From a virus (Duplodnaviria; Heunggongvirae; Uroviricota; Caudoviricetes): 43,386 bases of DNA. The notes beneath the pieces were generated by a model. It did no database searches. It saw only the letters and a program-made list of their open reading frames with translations, and was not told the origin of the DNA. Where the stretch lies: IMG/VR virus record IMGVR_UViG_2563366976_000013; one strand, written 5' to 3'. Each line of letters starts with the position of its first letter. The first letter of the stretch is position 1. The translations under genes were made by a program, and so were the position numbers. This document shows positions 3,367-43,386 of this stretch, one piece after another.

Positions 3367-3394
3367 ACCCGCAATATTTTGCGGGCTTTTTTTT
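3367..3394 (+). terminator. Rho-independent terminator oriented for plus-strand (antisense to late operon)
   Basis: Stem CCCGCAA/TTGCGGG followed by T8 on plus strand; minus-strand version lacks U-run. Confidence 0.45.
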
Positions 3395-6300
3395 AACGTT
3401 CTTCCAGAGACTGAACCCGCTCTTTTATCTTATCCATTTCTCTGCGCTGCCATGCTGCCTCGATATAGAATAAGAGATCAGGTCTGACCCCCCATCTAGA
3501 TCCTGCTGGCGTTATTTCAACGCGCTCAATGATGTCTTCTATTACCATCACTGGATTATCATCCTCATCAACAATGATGCTCCCGTCATTATCAGTCAGC
3601 GGCATTTCCCTTTGGCCAGTAATGACGTCATCATATACTGCGGGATAATCGTCATAGCAAAGAAAGGCATAGCGGCATGTTGTGCTTTCTTCTTCCATGA
3701 GTCCGTGAGAAATAAGAACATCACGAAGTTGCTGCGCGATTACACCATGATGTATCCTCGCCCCTTCTTCCCCCTTTATAGCGACAGCGTTCAGCCATTT
3801 ATAAGCGATATACCTGACGTCACCCCAGGCATCCAGCAATGCTTCGTCAGGAGAGACCGGCTCTGTCTTTAATGTTCCGTCACTGGTAACCACAGGATTG
3901 GAGCCAAGATAAACTATCGAGAACCTGTTTCCCGGACCACCAAGAGCATTTACATTATCAAGATAAGGTTTAACATCTCCGTTCTCAAAAAGATGTTCGA
4001 GTGCGTTATATACCGCGCGACGTGGAGTACTGCTTCCGGAACCATGCAACGTTATCATTGCACCATCTGCTGAAGACGTTGTTTCACCGCCGCTAACGAT
4101 TAATCTCTGAGCGGTAACATCATCAGACGGTACTTTCTTCGCAATAATGGCGTAATTACCCTCAAGTTTGACTTCCGCGCGAACTTGTCCTGATGTACCT
4201 GCATGGACAGTCAGTGACTGGACGGCAACATCATCTGTGAAATCAACGGGTACAGGAACCGTCCTCACGCCTGACGTCGACATAAAAGTAGGAAGCGTTC
4301 TGTTAGGAGTGGCTCCGTAGACAAAATCCCTTGAAACAAATTCTTCCTGTTTAATTTTCACCCTGAAACAATACAAATCAGCCGGGTGACCATCGTGAAC
4401 ATAAGGATATTTTCTGTTGTTATCCCCTATGCTCCATGGGTTTAGAAAGTCTTCCCCACCGAAAATGTAGTACAGCCAGTTGTCTTTGATACAAACTGAA
4501 CCAACACCAACCGCAGAGTTAACTATTCCGCCCTGATAAATCTGATCAGTAACATTAACCCACTCTACATTATCCAGACTCCACTCATTGACGTTAACTC
4601 TGGTCATAAATGTTCTTGGATAATTTCCTGCATAACGGTTATCAGGTTCTCCTCCTTCCCACTCACCAAATGCGCGCTCACTGCCAAAAATAATCAGCTC
4701 ATCGCCAACTTTGGCAAAAGGAAGGTTTGAGTGATGAACATTATTTGGGAAGCGAAGAGAATTCCATGATGTACCTAAATCAGAGCTTCTGTGCAATGAA
4801 CTACCGGGTTGAGTACTTAATGTCCCCCTGGTCGTCAGATACAGAATGCCATCATAATATTTTACACATGGCTCAGATGCATTCGCCTCATATTCTACAG
4901 GTATGCGTCTGCGAACAAAGCTACCAGGAGAACCGAAAGCATCAGAGAAATAGAGTATCCCAAGCTCGCGTGGACCAATATCACCATTATGGTAGCCAAC
5001 AGCAAAACTGTTATCGCTAATCGTCGCAAAACTGTGAATCTCAGTAACAGGAGTGCTTCCGTCAACAAAAGAAGGAATAGTTCCAAGACTGGTTTTTCTC
5101 CATGGTGACGAGTGAAATGATGTGCCAAAACTCCAGTATCTACCCTCGTTATTCTGATCCACATCCTGGGTATTTTGCGTCGTAACTGTAAAGGTATTTT
5201 TATCAATAACAGTAGTCACCGTCATATTCCCGGTAACACCTGTAACACCAGAGTTTGAGAAGTTGACAAAATCACCAGCAAATAATCCGTGATCAGTAAT
5301 GCGAATATAAGCGACTTGCTGATTTGCTGCTTTCGTTATACCACCATAAACGCGAAGGCTGCGACTCATTGGGCGATCCCACAACTCTGCAACCTGCAGT
5401 TTATTTCCTCTCACGGTCCGCGTCTCAATTACAGCAAAAAGGCGATTTCTGACAACCCCCATACTCATGCAGTGATAGTTAACTGTGGGATAGTTTTTAT
5501 GTAAATCTGTAAGCCATTCCGGCGTTGTCCAGGTCTTCCCGTCATCTCCTGAGCGAACCCATGCAACATGGAGGTTATTTACACCATGGCGGTCTCCAGC
5601 CATAAAAGGCGCATAGATGACATTGTCATATACAAACGTTTTATCCTGCGTCCAGGCGTTGTACCACGGTGTATCTGTAATTTTAAATAACTCTCCCTGG
5701 ATAAAATCTTCAGAAGCATAAAAAAGAGGCTGGCCCGGTATTCTCTCAAATAAAAAACGAGCATTTTTAAATCGACTGACATCCGGAAGAGTTGATACTT
5801 TAAAAGTAAGCCCTAATCCGTCAATTTTATAACCTGGAGATGAGGCTTCAAGGCACGCGCTTATTGCAGTGGAATCGTCATTTATACCATCACCAACAGC
5901 TCCAAAATCTTTGGGGCTAATAGCATCACGCATTTTATCCTGGAACGTTCGGTACACAGCCCCAGAACCATACTGAATAAACCAACCAAAACCACCAACA
6001 ACTCCGGAGATTGCAGCATCGACATAATTACGCATTGAGCGATTATTTACAGCGTCCTGCTCAAATGATGGATCTGCAAGGTTAGAAATTTTGTTTTGCT
6101 TTGCATCGTAATATTTTGCAAGCAAAGATGGTTTCATCAATGCACGTCTGAACCACCCAAAACATTGCTGGATCAGCATCGTCAGGTAGTCAAAGGCATC
6201 TTCATGCACTTCGGGGAAAAATTTTCCCTGATTGCGAAGGTCTGTGTCCTGCACTACATCAAGCACACGATCTATCGTAATTCGCCATCCAGTAGCAAGC

Positions 6301-6512
6301 GGAGACGGAAGAACCACAGAACCGCCACTATAAGTGCCCGCCCCAGTTACCGTATAACCGGTATCCAGAACCAATTCTGTTACGTTTCCGTTCAGGTCAG
6401 ACACCTGAACAACCAGGTCTGATTTTCTGAAAATTCGAAAAGTATACGGAAACGATGTCGTAACGCCGTTACCGGTGTATTCGTTGTGGTCAACTTCGGT
6501 TGAGACCGTCAT
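3393..6512 (-). CDS. Tailspike: endo-N-acetylneuraminidase (endosialidase, K1 polysialic acid capsule depolymerase) with T7 gp17-like N-terminal adaptor and C-terminal intramolecular chaperone domain
   Basis: Long colinear matches to K1-phage endosialidase as recalled from memory (GQPLFYASEDFIQGELFKITDTPWYNAW, TVNYHCMSMGV, C-terminal ARIHHGVIAQQLRDV...CRYAFLCYDDYP); N-terminal region resembles T7 tail-fibre N-domain; RBS GGAG. Confidence 0.85.
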   Translation of the reverse strand: MTVSTEVDHNEYTGNGVTTSFPYTFRIFRKSDLVVQVSDLNGNVTELVLDTGYTVTGAGTYSGGSVVLPSPLATGWRITIDRVLDVVQDTDLRNQGKFFPEVHEDAFDYLTMLIQQCFGWFRRALMKPSLLAKYYDAKQNKISNLADPSFEQDAVNNRSMRNYVDAAISGVVGGFGWFIQYGSGAVYRTFQDKMRDAISPKDFGAVGDGINDDSTAISACLEASSPGYKIDGLGLTFKVSTLPDVSRFKNARFLFERIPGQPLFYASEDFIQGELFKITDTPWYNAWTQDKTFVYDNVIYAPFMAGDRHGVNNLHVAWVRSGDDGKTWTTPEWLTDLHKNYPTVNYHCMSMGVVRNRLFAVIETRTVRGNKLQVAELWDRPMSRSLRVYGGITKAANQQVAYIRITDHGLFAGDFVNFSNSGVTGVTGNMTVTTVIDKNTFTVTTQNTQDVDQNNEGRYWSFGTSFHSSPWRKTSLGTIPSFVDGSTPVTEIHSFATISDNSFAVGYHNGDIGPRELGILYFSDAFGSPGSFVRRRIPVEYEANASEPCVKYYDGILYLTTRGTLSTQPGSSLHRSSDLGTSWNSLRFPNNVHHSNLPFAKVGDELIIFGSERAFGEWEGGEPDNRYAGNYPRTFMTRVNVNEWSLDNVEWVNVTDQIYQGGIVNSAVGVGSVCIKDNWLYYIFGGEDFLNPWSIGDNNRKYPYVHDGHPADLYCFRVKIKQEEFVSRDFVYGATPNRTLPTFMSTSGVRTVPVPVDFTDDVAVQSLTVHAGTSGQVRAEVKLEGNYAIIAKKVPSDDVTAQRLIVSGGETTSSADGAMITLHGSGSSTPRRAVYNALEHLFENGDVKPYLDNVNALGGPGNRFSIVYLGSNPVVTSDGTLKTEPVSPDEALLDAWGDVRYIAYKWLNAVAIKGEEGARIHHGVIAQQLRDVLISHGLMEEESTTCRYAFLCYDDYPAVYDDVITGQREMPLTDNDGSIIVDEDDNPVMVIEDIIERVEITPAGSRWGVRPDLLFYIEAAWQRREMDKIKERVQSLEER

Positions 6513-6616
6513 GTTAAATCTCCAGATAGTCGCAGCACCCGTTGCGCCGCATATCTGGTTATTCTATTACCTGGAAAACCACATATGGATAGAAAGGCTG
6601 TAAATACGAATAGATA

Positions 6617-6631
6617 TTACCTTTCAGGTAA
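6617..6631. promoter_or_regulatory. Operator-type palindrome TTACCtttcaGGTAA
   Basis: Perfect 5-5-5 inverted repeat; same motif family as cI/cro operators. Confidence 0.5.
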
Positions 6632-6668
6632 TTTGCAAAACGTGCTGGATAGCAAACAAATTATTTGC

Positions 6669-6688
6669 TACTGTATAAATATACAGTT
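6669..6688 (+). promoter_or_regulatory. LexA (SOS) box TACTGTATAAATATACAGTT
   Basis: 18/20 match to consensus TACTGTATATATATACAGTA, CTGT-N8-ACAG core intact; 20 nt upstream of ATG at 6708. Confidence 0.7.
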
Positions 6689-6707
6689 ATTGCATGGAGA
6701 AGATAAG

Positions 6708-6965
6708 ATGCAGCAGTATCACTATCCACTGGAAGACGGATTTACCGAAAGGATTCACACGCCGGGAGGCGTCAGGTCACTGGTGGAGGGATCGCACTTG
6801 ATGAAATTACTCCGGGATCTCGATAAGGATGGATTTAATGTCGATGGCCCACTTGCCGAACTGACTGCACTGATTAACTACGTCACCAGCTCACAGATGT
6901 CTATGCAGGATCTGCAAACACATCTCGACTATTGTGCCGAACAATTACGAAAACAAACCAGATAA
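6708..6965 (+). CDS. Small SOS-controlled antirepressor-like protein (standalone version of the Ant C-terminal domain)
   Basis: 85 aa from ATG 6708 with RBS GGAGAAG; aligns with C-terminal about 80 aa of the three Ant paralogs (PL..G..IH.P.GV..L.E.S.LM.LL..L..DG..V.G..AELT....Y......DLQTH..Y). Confidence 0.6.
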   Translation: MQQYHYPLEDGFTERIHTPGGVRSLVEGSHLMKLLRDLDKDGFNVDGPLAELTALINYVTSSQMSMQDLQTHLDYCAEQLRKQTR

Positions 6966-6968
6966 GGT

Positions 6969-7011
6969 TTGCAATTACCAAATGGAGTGCTTATATTTAC
7001 CTTTGCGGTAA
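6969..7011 (+). promoter_or_regulatory. Promoter for ant1 leader with overlapping operator
   Basis: -35 TTGCAA (6969-6974), 17-bp spacer, -10 TATATT (6992-6997), palindrome TTACCtttgcGGTAA 6997-7011 over the start site. Confidence 0.55.
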
Positions 7012-7038
7012 ATTTACATCGCACTCCTCTTGTGCCAT

Positions 7039-7090
7039 AGTAATCAGGCACTGGCAAAATCCAGTGCCGGGATTGGTCTCCCGGATTACT
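7039..7090 (+). ncRNA. Conserved structured leader RNA element upstream of ant1 (three-way junction fold), followed by leader terminator
   Basis: AGTAATC...GATTACT outer stem enclosing hairpins GGCACTGG-caaaat-CCAGTGCC and CCGGGA-ttggtc-TCCCGG; near-identical copy in ant2 leader (11160-11213, minus strand). Confidence 0.45.
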
Positions 7091-7104
7091 ACAGAGGCAC
7101 ATAT

Positions 7105-7124
7105 GCCGCATAAGCGGTTTTTTT
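7105..7124 (+). terminator. Leader terminator/attenuator upstream of ant1
   Basis: Short GC stem GCCGC-ataa-GCGG followed by T7 run; analogous stem plus T7 in ant2 leader. Confidence 0.45.
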
Positions 7125-7278
7125 ATGTGTAAAGCGCACCTATTCTATGGTGGGCTGTGTGGGGGCACCGAAAGGTGCGCCGGGTTCCTTTGTAGCCGGT
7201 AAGACCAACTCTGCACAGTTCACCACCATCTGATTGGTCTCAGCGGTGGTGATTAACCTAACTACAAAGGTGATCGCC

Positions 7279-7971
7279 ATGAATACCAAACCTTCCATCT
7301 TTTCCTTTGAGTCATCCTGCCAGATCCGTATGTTCATGATTGACGGAGAACCTTGGTTTGTCACCAAAGATGTGTGCAATGCTTTGAATATTGATGTTAC
7401 ACAAGCGAGAAAACTTGATAAAAAAGGCTGGAACAAAAAGGGGCTGTATTCAATACAGACCCCTGGTGGAATACAAGAACTATCCATCGTTTCAGAATCA
7501 GGTCTCTACATCCTTATTCTGCGTTGCAAAGAGGCAATGACTGAGGGAACGAGAGCATTCAGATTTCTTGAATGGGTTACAGGCGAAGTACTTCCTCAGA
7601 TCCGCCGCACCGGAAGCTACATTAAAAACTCGCTCCCGCAGGAAGAACGCATAAAGATGGTTGCCGACCAGGTAGCCAACGCCACGGCGTCAGCAGTAAT
7701 GCAGGCGATGAAGATAGAGAACAAAACCTACAGCGCCCCACTGAAGCCCGGCTACCGCAGCCTGATTCATTCGCCGTCTGGTGTTCTCGGCCTGACGGAG
7801 AACTCACTGCTGATGAATCTGCTGAACCAGTTACAGGACGACGGGCACGACGTATCGGGCGCGGCGGCGGAGCTGACCACCATGTTCTGCTACATCGTCG
7901 GTGTGAGCAAATGCCTGCGTGATATCCAGACCCACGCGGAATACATCAACGACAAGGCAGGGTTCTTCTGA
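7279..7971 (+). CDS. Antirepressor paralog 1: Bro-N/KilA-N-type N-terminal domain plus shared Ant C-terminal domain
   Basis: IDGEPWFVTKDVCNAL motif (Bro-N-like); C-terminal 100 aa near-identical to the other two paralogs; start at ATG 7279 with RBS AAAGGTGA (ORF track begins at upstream TTG 7234). Confidence 0.75.
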   Translation: MNTKPSIFSFESSCQIRMFMIDGEPWFVTKDVCNALNIDVTQARKLDKKGWNKKGLYSIQTPGGIQELSIVSESGLYILILRCKEAMTEGTRAFRFLEWVTGEVLPQIRRTGSYIKNSLPQEERIKMVADQVANATASAVMQAMKIENKTYSAPLKPGYRSLIHSPSGVLGLTENSLLMNLLNQLQDDGHDVSGAAAELTTMFCYIVGVSKCLRDIQTHAEYINDKAGFF

Positions 7972-8014
7972 CGGGCGGCGGCACAGGGATGTGCCTTTAA
8001 ATAATTCTGTACGA

Positions 8015-8057
8015 TTGCAGACCGGGGGTGAATAGCGTACTATTACCTTAAAGGTAA
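8015..8057 (+). promoter_or_regulatory. Promoter/operator module (J element) upstream of YafO-like cassette 1
   Basis: -35 TTGCAG, 17-bp spacer, -10 TACTAT ending at first T of palindrome TTACCttaaaGGTAA (8043-8057). Confidence 0.5.
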
Positions 8058-8099
8058 ACCTGTTTTTATTTTATACCTGTAACTTACCGGAGATTAAAG

Positions 8100-8426
8100 A
8101 TGACAAAACTTGGATTCGTGATGAGAGGTCCGGTAAGAAGCGGAACTCATGCAAAGCGTAGCAAGAGTCGTATTTTTACTGGTAAGGTTGTAGCACGTAA
8201 ATCAGCTATTGGCTCGTTCAATAGTGAAAATGCGGCATTGCGCCATATTTTTATCAGCACAAAGCCAAGAGCATCCGCTGATGTGCATACAATGTCTATT
8301 CCTATCACAAAGAATATAAAGCGGATAAAAAAGCTCTCATCTGCAGAATCAAAAGAGATATCTTTCCGCCAGCTTAACTCATTAGAAACGCATATGAAGG
8401 AAGAGGAATTCGATGTTTTTGAGTGA
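8100..8426 (+). CDS. Putative antitoxin/partner protein of YafO-like toxin 1 (basic, no recognised fold)
   Basis: 108 aa, RBS GGAG, overlaps toxin start by 14 nt (translational coupling); weak similarity to partner of cassette 2 (ARKSAIGSFNSE vs ARRSFNGSVE). Confidence 0.35.
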   Translation: MTKLGFVMRGPVRSGTHAKRSKSRIFTGKVVARKSAIGSFNSENAALRHIFISTKPRASADVHTMSIPITKNIKRIKKLSSAESKEISFRQLNSLETHMKEEEFDVFE

Positions 8427-8925
8427 GTATAGCGGGAAGGTTATACCTACTGGTGAGTTTAAAACTGATGACTTTCTGATTTCGCTAAAAGATGCTTTTA
8501 AACAACACTGGCGTCATGGTCATCATCCTGATCTGGGAAAAGATACTCTTTTTGAAAGACCAGAGGAAGTATTAGGCTTCCATCTCAGAAAGGTTCATGT
8601 CAATATTGGTGAATATGCATCATATTCATACTCATGTACTGAACAGTGTTGGGATGAGTGGTCATATGGATTGATTGATGAACAAGGAAATTACAGGCCA
8701 AAACCAACCAGTAACGCATATCTCATATATGCAGTCAATGAAATAAGAGATGCAGCCTTACTAGCTTATTGGGACCCGCCCGCACACACCAAAGCTAACG
8801 CAAAAGTTTGGATGGATTCCGTATTGAATTTCACAAAATTATTTCATGAACGAACGAATACAGCTCCACTTAGTAGAAATGTTTATCCGTGGGATTATTC
8901 GTACAAATCCAAAAAGCCTGCATAG
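8413..8925 (+). CDS. YafO-like toxin domain protein, copy 1 (type II toxin, ribosome-dependent mRNA interferase family, by motif)
   Basis: Motifs W.HGHHPDLGKD..FERP...L.FHLRKVHV and AYLIYAV...DAALLAYWDPPAH resemble YafO from memory; paralog of 9440..9985; RBS AAGAGGAA. Confidence 0.5.
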   Translation: MFLSEYSGKVIPTGEFKTDDFLISLKDAFKQHWRHGHHPDLGKDTLFERPEEVLGFHLRKVHVNIGEYASYSYSCTEQCWDEWSYGLIDEQGNYRPKPTSNAYLIYAVNEIRDAALLAYWDPPAHTKANAKVWMDSVLNFTKLFHERTNTAPLSRNVYPWDYSYKSKKPA

Positions 8926-8935
8926 TAGTTTTTTA

Positions 8936-9155
8936 TGGACGAAACAAAAGTCAGTGCTACACTCATTGACGCCACATTGAGGTGGCTTATAGATGGAAAT
9001 TTCACAATGAAAAAAGCATTTGCTGCACTGTTCGTTTTGTTGTCTCTGGTAGCGTCAACTCAGGCCTTTGCCGGTCGTTGTCAGCACGACAGCGACACTG
9101 CTGCTGACGGCTCCCGCTGCGGTGGGCGTTCTGCGGATTCCCGCCCGGGCGGCGG
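8936..9155 (+). repeat. Direct repeat copy A (220 bp, one mismatch to copy B at 10007..10226)
   Basis: Identical sequence block containing small signal-peptide ORF; seen directly. Confidence 0.9.
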
Positions 9156-9174
9156 CACAGGGATGTGCCTTTAA
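9007..9174 (+). CDS. Small secreted Cys-containing peptide (55 aa) or gene fragment, copy 1
   Basis: Signal peptide MKKAFAALFVLLSLVASTQAFA then about 30-aa mature part with Cys residues; ends inside J junction sequence; weak RBS. Confidence 0.3.
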   Translation: MKKAFAALFVLLSLVASTQAFAGRCQHDSDTAADGSRCGGRSADSRPGGGTGMCL

Positions 9175-9205
9175 ATAATTCTGTACAGATTGCAGGTGAA
9201 TAGCG

Positions 9206-9985: not shown

Positions 9986-10005
9986 CCCGCAGCGCGGGCT
10001 TTTTT
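9984..10005 (+). terminator. Rho-independent terminator after toxin 2
   Basis: AGCCCGC-agc-GCGGGCT stem followed by T5. Confidence 0.6.
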
Positions 10006-10006
10006 G

Positions 10007-10226
10007 TGGACGAAACAAAAGTCAGTGCTACACTCATTGACGCCACATTGAGGTGGCTTATAGATGGAAATTTCACAATGAAAAAAGCATTTGCTGCACT
10101 GTTCGTTTTGTTGTCTCTGGTAGCGTCAACTCAGGCCTTTGCCGGTCGTTGTCAGCACGACAGCGACACTGCTGCTGACGGCTCACGCTGCGGTGGGCGT
10201 TCTGCGGATTCCCGCCCGGGCGGCGG
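10007..10226 (+). repeat. Direct repeat copy B
   Basis: 220 bp, one mismatch vs 8936..9155. Confidence 0.9.
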
Positions 10227-10312: not shown

Positions 10313-10969
10313 TCAGAAGAACCCTGCTTTGTCGTTGATGTATTCCGCGTGCGTCTGGATATCACGCAGGCATTTGCTCACACCGACGATGTAGCAGAAC
10401 ATGGTGGTCAGCTCCGCCGCCGCGCCCGATACATCGTGCCCGTCTTCCTGCAACTGGTTCAGCAAATTCATCAGCAGTGAGTTCTCCGTCAGGCCGAGAA
10501 CACCAGACGGCGAATGAATCAGGCTACGGTAGCCGGGCTTCAGTGGGGCGCTGTATTCTTTTTTGTCTTCCAGCTTGATCGCCTCCATAATGGCGGGCAT
10601 GAAGCCTGACAAGACCTTCTCCACTTTTGTTTCTTGTTGTCTTAAACGTTTCTCGCATTCAATGAAGTAGCGTCGCACCTGGCGACCTTTTTCGTTACGC
10701 TCGACCATCGCCAGCTCTTTGGCTGTATCAAGGGTGAGGTGGTACTCTTTGCGGTTGTGGCCGCCTCTACCAGATGTTTGCTTTCCCAAATTGGAAAGCA
10801 AAATATAGTCTTGATTTTCAATGAATTCGTATTCTGATATGCGATTTGTAATCCATGCTGCAAACACCTTTTTAACACCTAAAAAAGCGTGCAGATCGCG
10901 GGCATTACAAAGTAGGGCTGTTTCGTTAGATATAGTGCCGTTGAATACGGGGATGAGTTGAGCGTTCAT
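10313..10969 (-). CDS. Antirepressor paralog 2: AntA-type N-terminal domain plus shared Ant C-terminal domain
   Basis: N-terminus [23 protein letters not shown], middle [20 protein letters not shown]; C-terminus near-identical to ant1 and ant3; RBS GGAGACG. Confidence 0.75.
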
Positions 10970-11125
10970 GATGGCGTCTCCACTTAGCGAATTACATCAC
11001 CACCGCTGAGACCAATCAGATGGTGGTGAACTGAACGGAGTTGGTCTTACCGGCCTAAGTGGTACCGGCGTCCTTTCGGACCCCCATTCAGCCCACCATA
11101 ATTCTGGCATGACTGTGCTATACGC

Positions 11126-11285
11126 ATAAAAAAACCACGTCTGGCGTGGTATGCGCCACTTAGTAATCCGGGAGACCAATCCCGGCACTGGATTTTGCCA
11201 GTGCCCGATTACTATGGCACAAGAGGAGTGCGATGTAAATTTACCGAAAAGGTAATGATAAACGCTAAGAAATATTAAAATCAAC
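11126..11285 (-). promoter_or_regulatory. ant2 promoter, operator (11241-11255), structured leader (11160-11213) and leader terminator (11126-11150)
   Basis: Mirror image of ant1 control region with near-identical structured element; palindrome TTACCgaaaaGGTAA. Confidence 0.5.
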
Positions 11286-26755: not shown

Positions 26756-26792
26756 TTGACATTTAACGCACAAATTATTACCTTTTAGGTAA
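26756..26792. promoter_or_regulatory. -35-like TTGACA and operator palindrome TTACCttttaGGTAA at terminase-portal moron
   Basis: Palindrome 26778-26792; TTGACA at 26756-26761 on plus strand. Confidence 0.4.
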
Positions 26793-27114: not shown

Positions 27115-27191
27115 GTGGCATTAGCTCAGTTGGACAGAGCAACCGCCTTCTAAGCGGTTGGTCGCAGGTTCGAATCCTGCATGCCACGCCA
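27115..27191 (+). tRNA. tRNA-Arg (anticodon UCU, reads AGA)
   Basis: Manual cloverleaf: acceptor GTGGCAT/ATGCCAC, D-arm GCTC/GAGC, anticodon stem ACCGC/GCGGT with loop CTTCTAA, T-arm GCAGG-TTCGAAT-CCTGC, discriminator G, CCA encoded. Confidence 0.85.
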
Positions 27192-41129: not shown

Positions 41130-41453
41130 AATCACGCCTGACGAATCGCGATTATCTCGCTATTGGTATTGCAGAGATTGCTGGACTCAGTGGCGCATGA
41201 TTTGACAATGCCGCCAGAGCTATCGCATACTGACCGCACTAGAACTTCAAAGCGGTCACCCGCACCCGATAGCTTTGCGGCTTTTTTATGCCTGCAATTT
41301 GGCATAGTCACATCCGTACAAAGGTCGGGTGGAGAGGCGTAATACAATACCCAAAAGGGGAATATGCCCGGAGCGTCTTTGAAGGCTCTAGTTGACACCC
41401 GATCACCAGCTACTAACTGGTGATTGCTAACTAAAACTTCAAAGGAGGTCATC

Positions 41454-42104
41454 ATGACCAGTCAACTCATCCCCGTATTCAACGGCACTATATCCAACGA
41501 AACCGCTCTTCTCGTTAATGCCCGTGATTTACACTCTTTCCTCGATGTAGGTAAGCGATTTGCTTCGTGGATTGTCGAACGAATTGCTGAATATGGTTTC
41601 GTTGAAAATCAAGACTTTATGATTATTTCCCAAGTTCGGGAAAAAATAGGCAGAGGCCGTCCTGCAAAAGACTACCACCTCACCCTCGATACAGCCAAAG
41701 AGCTGGCGATGGTCGAGCGTAACGAAAAAGGTCGTCAGGTACGATGCTACTTCATTGAATGCGAGAAACGTTTAAGACAACAAGAAACAAAAGTGGAGAA
41801 GGTCTTGTCAGGCTTCATGCCCGCCATTATGGAGGCGATCAAGCTGGAAGACAAAAAAGAATACAGTGCCCCGCTGAAGCCCGGCTACCGCAGCCTGATT
41901 CATTCTCCGTCTGGTGTTCTCGGCCTGACGGAGAACTCACTGCTGATGAATCTGCTGAACAAGTTACAGGAAGACGGGCACGACGTATCGGGCGCGGCGG
42001 CGGAACTGACCACCATGTTCTGCTACATCGTCGGTGTGAGTAAATGCCTGCGTGATATCCAGACGCACGCGGAGTACATCAACGACAAGGCAGGGTTCTT
42101 CTGA
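41454..42104 (+). CDS. Antirepressor paralog 3: AntA-type N-terminal domain plus shared Ant C-terminal domain
   Basis: High identity to paralog 2 across most of length; RBS AAGGAGG; hairpin CACCAGctactaaCTGGTG just upstream. Confidence 0.7.
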   Translation: MTSQLIPVFNGTISNETALLVNARDLHSFLDVGKRFASWIVERIAEYGFVENQDFMIISQVREKIGRGRPAKDYHLTLDTAKELAMVERNEKGRQVRCYFIECEKRLRQQETKVEKVLSGFMPAIMEAIKLEDKKEYSAPLKPGYRSLIHSPSGVLGLTENSLLMNLLNKLQEDGHDVSGAAAELTTMFCYIVGVSKCLRDIQTHAEYINDKAGFF

Positions 42105-42135
42105 CGGCGGCGGCACAGGGATGTGCCGGGCAAAA

Positions 42136-43386
42136 TTATTCCCCCGCCATCCACTTCTCAAACTTCGACGGGGAGAACGGAATCAGATCCGTATGCTCCC
42201 CGTTAATCCAGGAATCAATCATATCGGCCCACTGCTGCAACATGTAGGCGCGCTGTCTGGCGTATTCCGCTTTGTTATATACGGCGCGCACACCTTTCTG
42301 CTCATGTGCCAGAGCCTTTTCAATCCAGTCTGAAGGATAACCAGCCTCATGCAACAACGTACTGGCTGTACGGCGCATATCGTGTACGGTGAAGCCCTGA
42401 ATATGCTCACCATCTTCATTTATTATTTTCACCGTTCTGTCGATCAGAGAGTTCAGCGCGGCATTAGATAATGGCTTCCGGAAATTGTAACGACCAGGAA
42501 CCAGATATTCACTTCCACCAGCGCACATCTGCAACCCAACCAATATATCCTGTGCCTGTTTAGGCAGGTAAATAACGTGCGCCCGGCTTCCCTTCATGCG
42601 GTCTGAAGGAATTGTCCATGTCCATTTTTTAAAATCTATTTCATCCCACGTTGCATTGGTGAATTCGCCTTTACGAACCATAGTGATAAGCACCAGCTTT
42701 AAAGCCATTTTCATAGTGCCCATAGCACCAATGGCATCCAGCGTGCGGAAGAACAGGCCAATTTCTTCTGGTGTCAGTGTTCGCTCTCGTGGTTTAAATA
42801 TGGCGATAGACGAAGGTTTAATGTCAGCCGCAGGATTAAACAAACCATGACCACGGTCATTGGCGTGACGGTATACGCTGCTGATGATCTCCCTGGCCTG
42901 TACTGCTGTTGCCCGACCACCGCGTTCGACAATCCGGTCACACAAATCACGAACCATCGATGTGGTAATTTCAGCCATCATTTTGTTGCCAAGAACCGGA
43001 AGTATGTCACGGTCGATCACCGCCTGCTTCATTGCGCGGGTACTGTCAGCCAGGATAACGTGTTTCATATAACTGTCGGTATGTACCGCAAACGTCTCGG
43101 CACCACGAATCTTTTTGATACCGTCACGTTTAGCCGCAGCCGGTGACTGGCCTGCTTTAAGCAGCTTCTTTGCAGCAATCAGTTCTTCCCGCGCTTCTGC
43201 CAGGCTGATACCGTCACGCCCATACTGCCCGATTACCAGTGTTTCGCGGCGACCGTTGATACGGTAGTCATAGCGAAACGAGACCGTGCCTGACGTAAGC
43301 ACAGCTACATACAGCCCGTCACGATCGGAGACCTTGTACAGTTTGTCCTGCGGCTTGAGGTTTTTTAATTTTGTATCGGTAAGCAC
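42136..43386 (-). CDS. int: Tyrosine integrase (phage integrase family), N-terminus truncated by window end
   Basis: N-terminal LTDTKLKNLKP...DGLYVAV arm-binding type region and C-terminal catalytic region with HDMRRT and terminal-Y context; ORF runs off window. Confidence 0.85.
   Translation of the reverse strand: MLTDTKLKNLKPQDKLYKVSDRDGLYVAVLTSGTVSFRYDYRINGRRETLVIGQYGRDGISLAEAREELIAAKKLLKAGQSPAAAKRDGIKKIRGAETFAVHTDSYMKHVILADSTRAMKQAVIDRDILPVLGNKMMAEITTSMVRDLCDRIVERGGRATAVQAREIISSVYRHANDRGHGLFNPAADIKPSSIAIFKPRERTLTPEEIGLFFRTLDAIGAMGTMKMALKLVLITMVRKGEFTNATWDEIDFKKWTWTIPSDRMKGSRAHVIYLPKQAQDILVGLQMCAGGSEYLVPGRYNFRKPLSNAALNSLIDRTVKIINEDGEHIQGFTVHDMRRTASTLLHEAGYPSDWIEKALAHEQKGVRAVYNKAEYARQRAYMLQQWADMIDSWINGEHTDLIPFSPSKFEKWMAGE

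Follow-up and report, generated by a model that had tools for sequence, protein, structure and literature searches.

The question that this locus raises is what kind of RNA element precedes the antirepressor-type genes ant1 and ant2, and by what mechanism might it control them? The window (i.e., the whole 43,386-nucleotide stretch of DNA that was analyzed) is a phiV10/epsilon15-like (Uetakevirus) prophage of E. coli. When positions 6500-8100, a 1.6-kb segment that holds ant1 and the leader in front of it (module 1), are used as a query, they are 98% identical to a stretch of many E. coli chromosomes and find matches in 543 of the 5426 complete E. coli genomes; the same query is 92-98% identical to phages EC.W1-9 and phiV10 and their relatives. 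In the one E. coli chromosome that was inspected, the prophage adjoins yfgH/yfgI. The 246-nt leader by itself matches 225 phage records, many Stx phages among them.

IsrK and C4 RNAs upstream of ant1

An initial annotation of the region at 7004-7278 treated it as a single structured leader with an attenuator-like terminator. The region is indeed structured, with both leader copies folding better than shuffled sequences (z = -5.1 and -4.4), yet it is not one cis element. A scan of the window with Rfam at curated thresholds resolved it into two RNAs in tandem, IsrK (RF01394) and then the C4 antisense RNA (RF01695), which are followed by target sites. The Rfam matches in the window were isrK, C4 and sRNA-Xcc1, plus a tRNA at 27115, and no other family was matched. 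We hold it very probable that 7004-7278 is an RNA immunity module of the P1 immI type, in which IsrK serves as a decoy and C4 blocks ant translation. The parts of module 1 are as follows.

6997-7011, no strand assigned: palindrome TTACC-N5-GGTAA resembling an operator, which abuts the module 1 promoter at its -35 hexamer
7013-7041, + strand: sigma-70-like promoter TTTACA-17-CATAGT with a TG-extended -10, predicted start ~G7048
7048-7124, + strand: IsrK, a putative a1b1 target-mimic element (RF01394, 74.7 bits, E = 2.6e-14; gathering score 50), with hairpin 1 at 7048-7067, hairpin 2 at 7068-7083, terminator at 7105-7118 and T run at 7118-7124
7073-7079, + strand: a1, UUGGUCU, displayed by the loop of IsrK hairpin 2 and pairing perfectly with a' over 7 bp
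7089-7097, + strand: b1, CUACAGAGG, part of the IsrK linker, pairing with b' over 9 bp (one of them G-U)
7143-7230, + strand: C4 antisense RNA, 88 nt (RF01695, 78.6 bits, E = 7e-14; gathering score 45)
7149-7227, + strand: predicted mature C4, 79 nt, its ends set by alignment to the annotated 77-nt P1 c4 RNA
7187-7195, + strand: b', CCUUUGUAG, in the second inner hairpin loop of C4, complementary to b1 and b2
7202-7208, + strand: a', AGACCAA, in the single-stranded C4 junction after the b' hairpin, complementary to a1 and a2
7220-7252, + strand: hairpin TCACCACC-N17-GGTGGTGA, displaying a2 (UUGGUCU, 7234-7240) in its loop
7262-7270, + strand: b2, CUACAAAGG, a perfect 9-bp complement of b', overlapping the ant1 Shine-Dalgarno AAGGUGA (7267-7273)
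7279-7971, + strand: ant1, Bro-N antirepressor-type gene (Pfam Bro-N, E = 1.8e-13; same start in RefSeq)

Much of what had been described in the leader can be placed among these parts; the decamer, the two hairpins noted and the differing terminator stems lie at the described positions or no more than one base away. The decamer GATTGGTCTC, said to be displayed in two hairpin loops, occurs exactly at 7071-7080 and 7232-7241 on the + strand and again at 11172-11181 and 11008-11017 on the - strand, with no other exact copies in the window; C4 sits between both copies of the first pair and is complementary to them. The GC hairpin with its run of seven T is the IsrK terminator, and its stems do differ in sequence between the leaders while the shape is kept (GCCGC/GCGGT in copy 1 and ACCACG/CGTGGT in copy 2). 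The second hairpin that had been noted is the one at 7220-7252, whose end is 14 nt upstream of the Shine-Dalgarno and 26 nt upstream of the ATG at 7279. The element shared by the two leaders is nearly identical, as claimed, but its length of ~55 nt was an underestimate: all but two of ~95 aligned positions (6997-7091) are identical, and the conserved block is thus longer and includes the operator and promoter.

The IsrK architecture of two 5' hairpins and a Rho-independent terminator is supported by covariation, with compensatory changes in 8 of 15 pairs among 15 homologues. At 7035-7087, the c4-a1b1 model (RF03163) scored below its gathering score of 46.7 (38.4 bits, E = 2e-8), and the homologous elements of P1, Gifsy-1, Stx2 II, APSE-1 and locus L143 pass it, overlapping their isrK matches. 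C4 folds into a long closing stem around two hairpins, with covariation in 7 of 22 pairs (8 sequences, including P1). Its predicted 5' end lies at a conserved AU/GG site (7148/7149) and its predicted 3' end at ...CACC (ACCACC tail), both of which align with the ends of P1 c4. In the a2 hairpin, 91.6% of cells in the alignment are paired, both sides have changed in 6 of 12 pairs, and none of 500 shuffles was as good. Structure-preserving changes in homologues, which the initial annotation had proposed to look for and whose lack it had set against its claim, are therefore found in IsrK, C4 and the a2 hairpin alike. The initial annotation had overlooked the C4 RNA (7143-7230) and a second recognition site, b1/b'/b2, that covers the Shine-Dalgarno.

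The promoter has its -10 hexamer, CATAGT, at 7036-7041, and the predicted start at G7048 is position 1 of the isrK model. A TTGAC-N17/18-TAnnnT promoter stands at an equal distance upstream of IsrK in nearly all of 15 homologues, and the homologous position in P1 is that of the annotated promoter P1c4. A consensus scan of the stretch that runs from the IsrK terminator to C4 found no further promoter. The palindrome TTACC-N5-GGTAA has 16 matches in the window (12 of them exact) against 0.71 expected, and one of these, at 11241-11255, precedes module 2 and likewise abuts the -35 hexamer there. The P1 record has an analogous operator, Oc4, which overlies the promoter of c4. These palindromes suggest that the prophage repressor may control the promoters of modules 1 and 2 through TTACC-N5-GGTAA.

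One explanation for such a leader is that it is a self-contained cis attenuator or riboswitch-like element, in which a three-way junction senses a ligand or protein and controls the T7 terminator. The leader folds well and contains a strong intrinsic terminator, as this explanation would have it, yet we regard it as extremely improbable. The three-way junction described in the initial annotation did not hold up, since its closing helix (7038-7045/7084-7091) uses the -10 hexamer and bases before the predicted start; moreover, the helix is not conserved, as its 8-bp form occurs only in four near-identical phiV10-type sequences, and the 3-5 bp found in the other 11 homologues are taken to be chance level. 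No riboswitch family was matched in the Rfam search, even at E<=1, and the features that are conserved and co-vary are sites of an intermolecular type and do not form a ligand pocket. Among the RNA-level functions that had been suggested, antisense or loop-mediated control was essentially correct, and there is no indication of an attenuator that senses a ligand or the ribosome.

Recognition sites in three modules and their homologues

The window holds two further modules, one upstream of ant2 and one upstream of a third antirepressor-type gene, ant3.

10967-11255, - strand: module 2 (Rfam isrK 67.7 bits, C4 61.2 bits; alignment to module 1)
11241-11255, - strand: module 2 operator
11239-11211, - strand: module 2 promoter
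11204-11128, - strand: module 2 IsrK
11103-11019, - strand: module 2 C4
11179-11173, 11047-11041 and 11015-11009, - strand: module 2 a1, a' and a2, the last in the hairpin at 11029-10997
11163-11156, - strand: module 2 b1, CUAAGUGG
11062-11055, - strand: module 2 b', CCACUUAG
10987-10980, - strand: module 2 b2, CUAAGUGG, over the Shine-Dalgarno GGAG
10313-10969, - strand: ant2, AntA-domain antirepressor gene (Pfam AntA, E = 4e-26), ATG at 10969
41202-41456, + strand: module 3, a C4-clan variant (clan CL00128; sRNA-Xcc1, RF02221, 62.9 bits, gathering score 53)
41202-41231, + strand: module 3 promoter-like TTGACA-18-CATACT
~41237-41288, + strand: module 3 short putative decoy RNA with a terminator, containing b1, CUUCAAAG, at 41245-41252
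41323-41412, + strand: module 3 sRNA-Xcc1-type RNA, containing b', CUUUGAAG, at 41377-41384
41437-41445, + strand: module 3 b2, CUUCAAAGG, over the Shine-Dalgarno AAGGAGG, complementary to b'
41454-42104, + strand: ant3 (Pfam AntA domain), ATG at 41454

All three modules show complementarity of a' to a1 and a2 and of b' to b1 and b2, and in each of them b2 lies on the Shine-Dalgarno. Modules 1 and 2 have the same a sites, and their b1, b' and b2 have changed together (CUACAGAGG/CCUUUGUAG/CUACAAAGG vs CUAAGUGG/CCACUUAG/CUAAGUGG). The a'/a2 pairing spans 7 bp, and the b'/b2 pairing 9 bp in module 1 and 8 bp in module 2. Since a2 is ~40 nt upstream of the ATG, direct occlusion of the ribosome would be possible via b2 only. 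The a2 hairpin and the closing stem of C4 are mutually exclusive because the strand at 7220-7227 is common to both, and in the minimum-free-energy folds of the full leader (both copies) the a1 region is paired with the a' region. Neither an icd-like ORF nor any other ORF lies between C4 and ant1 or ant2, and b2 sits on the ant Shine-Dalgarno itself. A matrix of RNAduplex cross-reactivities among the three modules gave no discrimination, with flanking stem bases included in the calculation and the module 3 decoy mis-set.

The comparison was extended to 160 IMG/VR loci encoding relatives of ant1 or ant2, the upstream regions of which formed 23 clusters. A C4-clan RNA is present in all 20 loci that were scanned with Rfam, which represent most of the clusters, and the distance from its end to the start of the ant match is roughly 27-70 nt in 19 of the 20 (54 nt in L143). 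The order of isrK and then C4 also recurs in six of six further phage records (APSE-1, Stx2 II, a Stx2a phage, IdasGreatGrand, an Actinobacillus phage and phiP27). The a and b sites were located by anchoring on the Rfam matches. In 15 of 15 IsrK/C4 modules (those of P1, Gifsy-1, APSE-1 and Stx phages included), a' pairs perfectly over 7 bp with both a1 and a2, and b' finds its match in b1 and b2; the a and b triplets co-vary, with six different a sequences and thirteen b sequences among them. The b2 site is at or beside the Shine-Dalgarno in these 15 modules and overlaps it in nearly all. The two sites may reassort: a UUGGUCU and a UUGGCGU each occur with b CUAAGUGG, and further b types accompany both (i.e., CUACAAAGG and GUCACAGG with UUGGUCU, and CUAAAAGG with UUGGCGU). 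Across 20 distinct C4-clan modules, a cognate C4 makes 12-16 nt of Watson-Crick complementarity with its own downstream leader, compared with 5.95 +/- 4.0 for foreign pairs, and no foreign C4 outscored the cognate one.

Proposed mechanism of ant control and alternative models

We infer, by analogy with P1 and Gifsy-1, that C4 most likely blocks ant translation and that IsrK is most likely a target-mimic decoy. The same analogy is the source for RNA processing, for read-through and for control of the promoter by a repressor, whereas the complementarity of the sites, the covariation and the layout are observed in the sequences themselves. Transcription would start at ~G7048, from the promoter flanked by the operator-like palindrome. 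The IsrK terminator would stop most transcripts to give a ~77-nt IsrK, in which a1 and b1 are copies of the mRNA target sites, and the transcripts that read through would hold C4, which RNase P may cut at AU/GG, going by the homology to P1, to yield a ~79-nt tRNA-like RNA. The a' site of C4 would pair with a2 in its hairpin loop and b' with b2 on the ant1 Shine-Dalgarno, with the outcome that ant translation is blocked and the antirepressor stays silent in the lysogen. IsrK would act as a target mimic that competes for C4 by the same a and b sequences, such that excess IsrK should relieve repression, and in the unprocessed transcript it would pair with a' in cis. Modules 2 and 3 may work in the same way with other b specificities, and in module 3 with another a as well. 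As for the gene products, the Uetakevirus phage vB_EcoP_ZX5 is among the sequence matches of the 6500-8100 region, and when its Bro-N ORF4 was overexpressed, prophage numbers fell ~1000-fold, which corresponds to less lysogeny (PMC9782041).

The Gifsy-1 isrK-orf45-anrP locus of Salmonella, to which the present locus is homologous, offers genetic data on such pairings. According to the study by Hershko-Shalev et al. 2016 (PMC4825925), a1:a' pairing was proven there by the compensatory mutations G28A/C162U and G31A/C159U; when mapped onto the module, G28A and G31A fall in a1, and C162U and C159U in a'. The same study reports that IsrK in trans lifts anrP translation 139-fold and that an a1-mutant IsrK does not, and its Table 1D shows that a cis a1 mutation moved basal translation up and not down (PMC4825925). 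This last result is not predicted by a pure decoy model and suggests that cis a1:a' pairing affects the folding or maturation of the transcript too.

An alternative mechanism is the one published for Gifsy-1, in which the long isrK-orf-ant transcript is translationally silent, short IsrK opens the RBS of orf45, and translation of orf45 activates ant by coupling. In that model orf45 is a small upstream ORF that starts at the AUG of the AUGG inside C4. The homology of the two loci and the conservation of this AUG fit the model, as does the finding that mutation of the orf45 start codon or an early stop lowered activation (PMC4825925). The reading frame itself tells against it. From the conserved AUG (7147), the ORF is 28 aa long in module 1, where it ends 46 nt before the ant1 ATG, and 3 aa in module 2, and over nine modules its frame shifts and its length runs from 3 to 45 aa. 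In the P1 record, moreover, the conserved AUGG is where the mature c4 RNA, as annotated, has its 5' end, and PMC5320573 describes the GGW motif as the place where RNase P processes P1/P7 C4. The orf45-type stretch also evolves as an RNA, with compensatory changes in its stems. We judge it improbable that the coupling model applies here, and it is unlikely to be general across modules. A conserved leader peptide ('orf45') was rejected as a candidate feature of these modules on the same lengths and unstable frames.

Another possibility, modeled on P4, is that C4 acts mainly on transcription and not by a translational block: its pairing with a1/b1 on nascent IsrK and with a2/b2 would favor termination, either at the IsrK terminator or, through Rho, farther downstream. 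For every IsrK homologue, constrained folding allows an alternative hairpin that joins the 3' end region of b1 to the terminator's 5' arm, with a combined p of ~0.007 in a shuffle test on sequences that are not independent. In P1, polarity on ant is said to follow when icd translation is blocked. A P4 CI analogy for STnc1160 was raised by Hershko-Shalev et al. (PMC4825925). Individually, however, the p values range from 0.03 to 0.6, the register of the hairpin differs among modules, and its helices, at 3-5 bp, are weaker than the terminators. In Gifsy-1, the toxicity of IsrK was not reduced by constitutive STnc1160 (PMC4825925). Translational control is favored by the position of b2, which overlaps the Shine-Dalgarno in nearly all 15 modules. 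A termination mechanism of this kind appears rather unlikely, and a C4-responsive attenuator is a weak possibility.

A more elaborate version of the preferred scheme of translational block and decoy is a three-RNA circuit, in which IsrK would be a sponge for C4, C4 bound at b1 would remove the anti-terminator hairpin and so set its own read-through, and the a and b sites would form a reassorting code. We put this forward tentatively, as a possible if doubtful reading. If that is the case, one prophage could run three separate antirepressor channels, and the a site of 7 nt together with the hypervariable b site of 8-9 nt would constitute a combinatorial specificity code. The circuit would also recast the Gifsy-1 'orf45' as a C4 RNA.

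Relation to known immunity systems

The c4 antisense RNA of P1/P7 immI, with its a and b sites, was reportedly described by Citron and Schuster in 1990. The P1 record (NC_005856) gives the order Oc4 and promoters, a1, b1, the 77-nt c4 RNA, a2, b2, and the RBS and start of icd. The module here likewise consists of operator and promoter, a1, b1, a terminator-like hairpin, C4, a2 a few nt after C4, and b2 on an RBS; it shares with P1 the 7-nt a site and 8-9-nt b site, the Rfam C4 family, the AU/GG at the 5' end and ...CCACC 3' end of C4, and a hairpin displaying a2 that uses the 3' strand of C4. The P1 a1b1 region scores 51 bits with c4-a1b1 and a sub-threshold 35 bits (E = 8.5e-6) with isrK in Rfam, and IsrK is thus homologous to the a1b1 leader of P1. 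The c4 and c4-a1b1 motifs were defined by Weinberg et al. 2010, and PMC5320573 describes how RNase P processes P1 C4 at a GGW motif and how b' occludes the RBS.

The two systems also differ. P1 has icd, whereas b2 here covers the antirepressor's own Shine-Dalgarno; the a1b1 element here is a complete IsrK that ends in a strong terminator; P1 is a plasmid prophage, in contrast to the integrated epsilon15-like podovirus here; and the antirepressors here are of the Bro-N/AntA kind, with three modules in one prophage. These departures (no icd, direct targeting of ant, a full IsrK terminator, and three modules per prophage, two of which share a site) are minor or are seen in other prophages. The module is an already described phage immunity system and not a new kind of system.

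In Gifsy-1 (L164), isrK lies at 1195-1271, and the C4 match at 1297-1380 is the 'orf45'/STnc1160 stretch, such that isrK and C4 stand in tandem directly upstream of the antirepressor gene, as they do here. The a2 hairpin is also alike (TCACCACC...GGTGGTGA), and the 'first AUG of orf45' (A107) corresponds to the AU in the AU/GG that is conserved at the 5' end of C4. The a site differs (UUGGCGU there vs UUGGUCU here), as does b; the 45-codon ORF of Gifsy-1 is not conserved here, and the Gifsy-1 module adjoins a Q-like antiterminator gene, whereas the module here adjoins a tailspike gene. In the available sections of the Gifsy-1 study the 'orf45' stretch is not termed a C4 RNA, and only the P4 CI analogy is drawn for STnc1160 (PMC4825925). 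A stable short Hfq-binding IsrK RNA is known only for Salmonella Gifsy-1 (PMC4825925; PMC7067206).

In APSE phages of Hamiltonella, c4 and isrK sRNAs beside a BRO-family gene have already been reported (PMC7313666). APSE phages resemble the present prophage in having the same Rfam pair upstream of a Bro-N/Ant gene, triplet sites in APSE-1 and, in some phages, an sRNA-Xcc1-type RNA; the sites of APSE-1 differ in sequence (a UUGAGAC, b CUAACAAGG). The P4 CI RNA (seqA/seqB/seqC) is similar in being a leader-processed small RNA that is complementary to repeated sites up- and downstream (an analogy drawn in PMC4825925), but it acts by premature transcription termination. Membership of the P4 family is unsupported here, given that isrK, C4 and sRNA-Xcc1 were the only non-tRNA Rfam matches in the window. 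In P22 immI, a small antisense RNA, sar, similarly restrains an antirepressor gene in a secondary immunity region. The sar RNA is transcribed from the strand that lies opposite its target, whereas C4 is encoded on the strand of its target and acts through short loop sites.

The value of these findings lies mainly in annotation, as neither of the two records that were inspected, one an E. coli RefSeq chromosome and the other the GenBank record of phiV10, annotates the IsrK and C4 RNAs. Set out as a comparative table, the correspondences between IsrK and the P1 a1b1 element, and between the Gifsy-1 'orf45' stretch and a C4 RNA, join two literatures, and equating 'orf45' with C4 suggests a simpler reading of the Gifsy-1 data. 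Inasmuch as the IsrK and C4 RNAs would control antirepressors, they would therefore control prophage induction.

C4 RNA in Gifsy-1 and in existing records

The short terminated RNA IsrK, a probable decoy, and the antisense RNA C4, which probably targets the antirepressor ribosome-binding site, bear on the reading of the Gifsy-1 isrK locus (L164). The stretch of this locus known as 'orf45'/STnc1160 (1297-1380) matches the C4 antisense RNA with 69 bits, and the 'first AUG' of 'orf45' corresponds to the AU|GG conserved at the C4 5' end. In the part of the 2016 Gifsy-1 paper considered here (Hershko-Shalev et al., PMC4825925), the stretch is handled as a coding ORF and is not termed a C4 RNA. Homologues of window 6966-7278 are found in an E. 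coli prophage and in phiV10:

L001 (E. coli RefSeq record, PGAP), 6467-6780
L002 (phiV10 GenBank record), 5467-5778

IsrK and C4 are annotated in neither of these two records, and the phiV10 record marks only a 'putative rho-independent terminator' at the homologue (L002 5467-5778).

A third antirepressor module and a dispersed palindrome

A third antirepressor module lies at 41202-42104, and its RNA subtype differs from that of the other two:

within 41202-42104, short terminated decoy RNA
41323-41412, sRNA-Xcc1-type RNA of the C4 clan

The predicted target site (b2) of this module is positioned on the Shine-Dalgarno of the gene encoding the AntA-domain protein.

The palindrome TTACC-N5-GGTAA has 16 matches in the window, 12 of them exact, versus 0.71 expected. 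The 15-nt sites are spread across the prophage and are frequently paired, with starts as follows:

6617, 6997, 8043, 9211, 11241, 26778, 27395, 30328
30346, 34190, 34252, 36191, 36528, 36576, 37288, 37350

Two sites directly adjoin the -35 hexamers of IsrK promoters, and those at 26778 and 27395 flank a tRNA gene inside the prophage:

27115-27191, tRNA-Arg (anticodon TCT)

The motif count in the window placed no site close to the third module (41202-42104). The palindrome looks like a candidate operator for the prophage repressor, and the dispersed layout recalls that of the P1 C1 operators.

The tailspike and the region between ant1 and ant2

The minus-strand gene at 3393-6512 encodes an endosialidase tailspike of 1039 aa (End_beta_propel, E 2.7e-232) that also carries a Peptidase_S74 chaperone domain, which suggests specificity for the polysialic-acid (K1) capsule. 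In related prophages, an SGNH hydrolase tailspike replaces the endosialidase at the same position.

Between the two convergent ant modules is a 227-nt direct repeat (8929-9155 and 10000-10226, 99% identity). L001, the RefSeq prophage nearest to this one, carries a single ant module and lacks the repeat region. The ant1 gene is followed by two overlapping ORFs:

8100-8426, first ORF
8413-8925, second ORF

The second has a weak YafO-toxin match (20.1 bits, under the Pfam cut-off), and RefSeq relatives label its counterpart a YafO-family toxin. The two ORFs may be a toxin-antitoxin pair that is co-transcribed with ant1.

Shared 3' ends of the antirepressor genes

The stop codon of every ant gene is followed by a conserved GC-rich motif with the hairpin GGCACA-GGGA-TGTGCC, and this motif may mark a transcript end or serve in recombination:

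7972-8012, after ant1
42104-42144, after ant3
about 10305-10285, minus strand, after ant2
9146-9186, additional copy

The 3' (C-terminal) segments of ant1 (7716-7974) and ant3 (41849-42107) are 95% identical, and ant2, compared by eye, is nearly the same over its matching 3' portion (about 10313-10570 on the minus strand). Despite the common segment, the N-terminal domains differ, being Bro-N in ant1 versus AntA in ant3. Common 3' ends joined to unlike N-terminal domains suggest that domains have been shuffled among the antirepressors.
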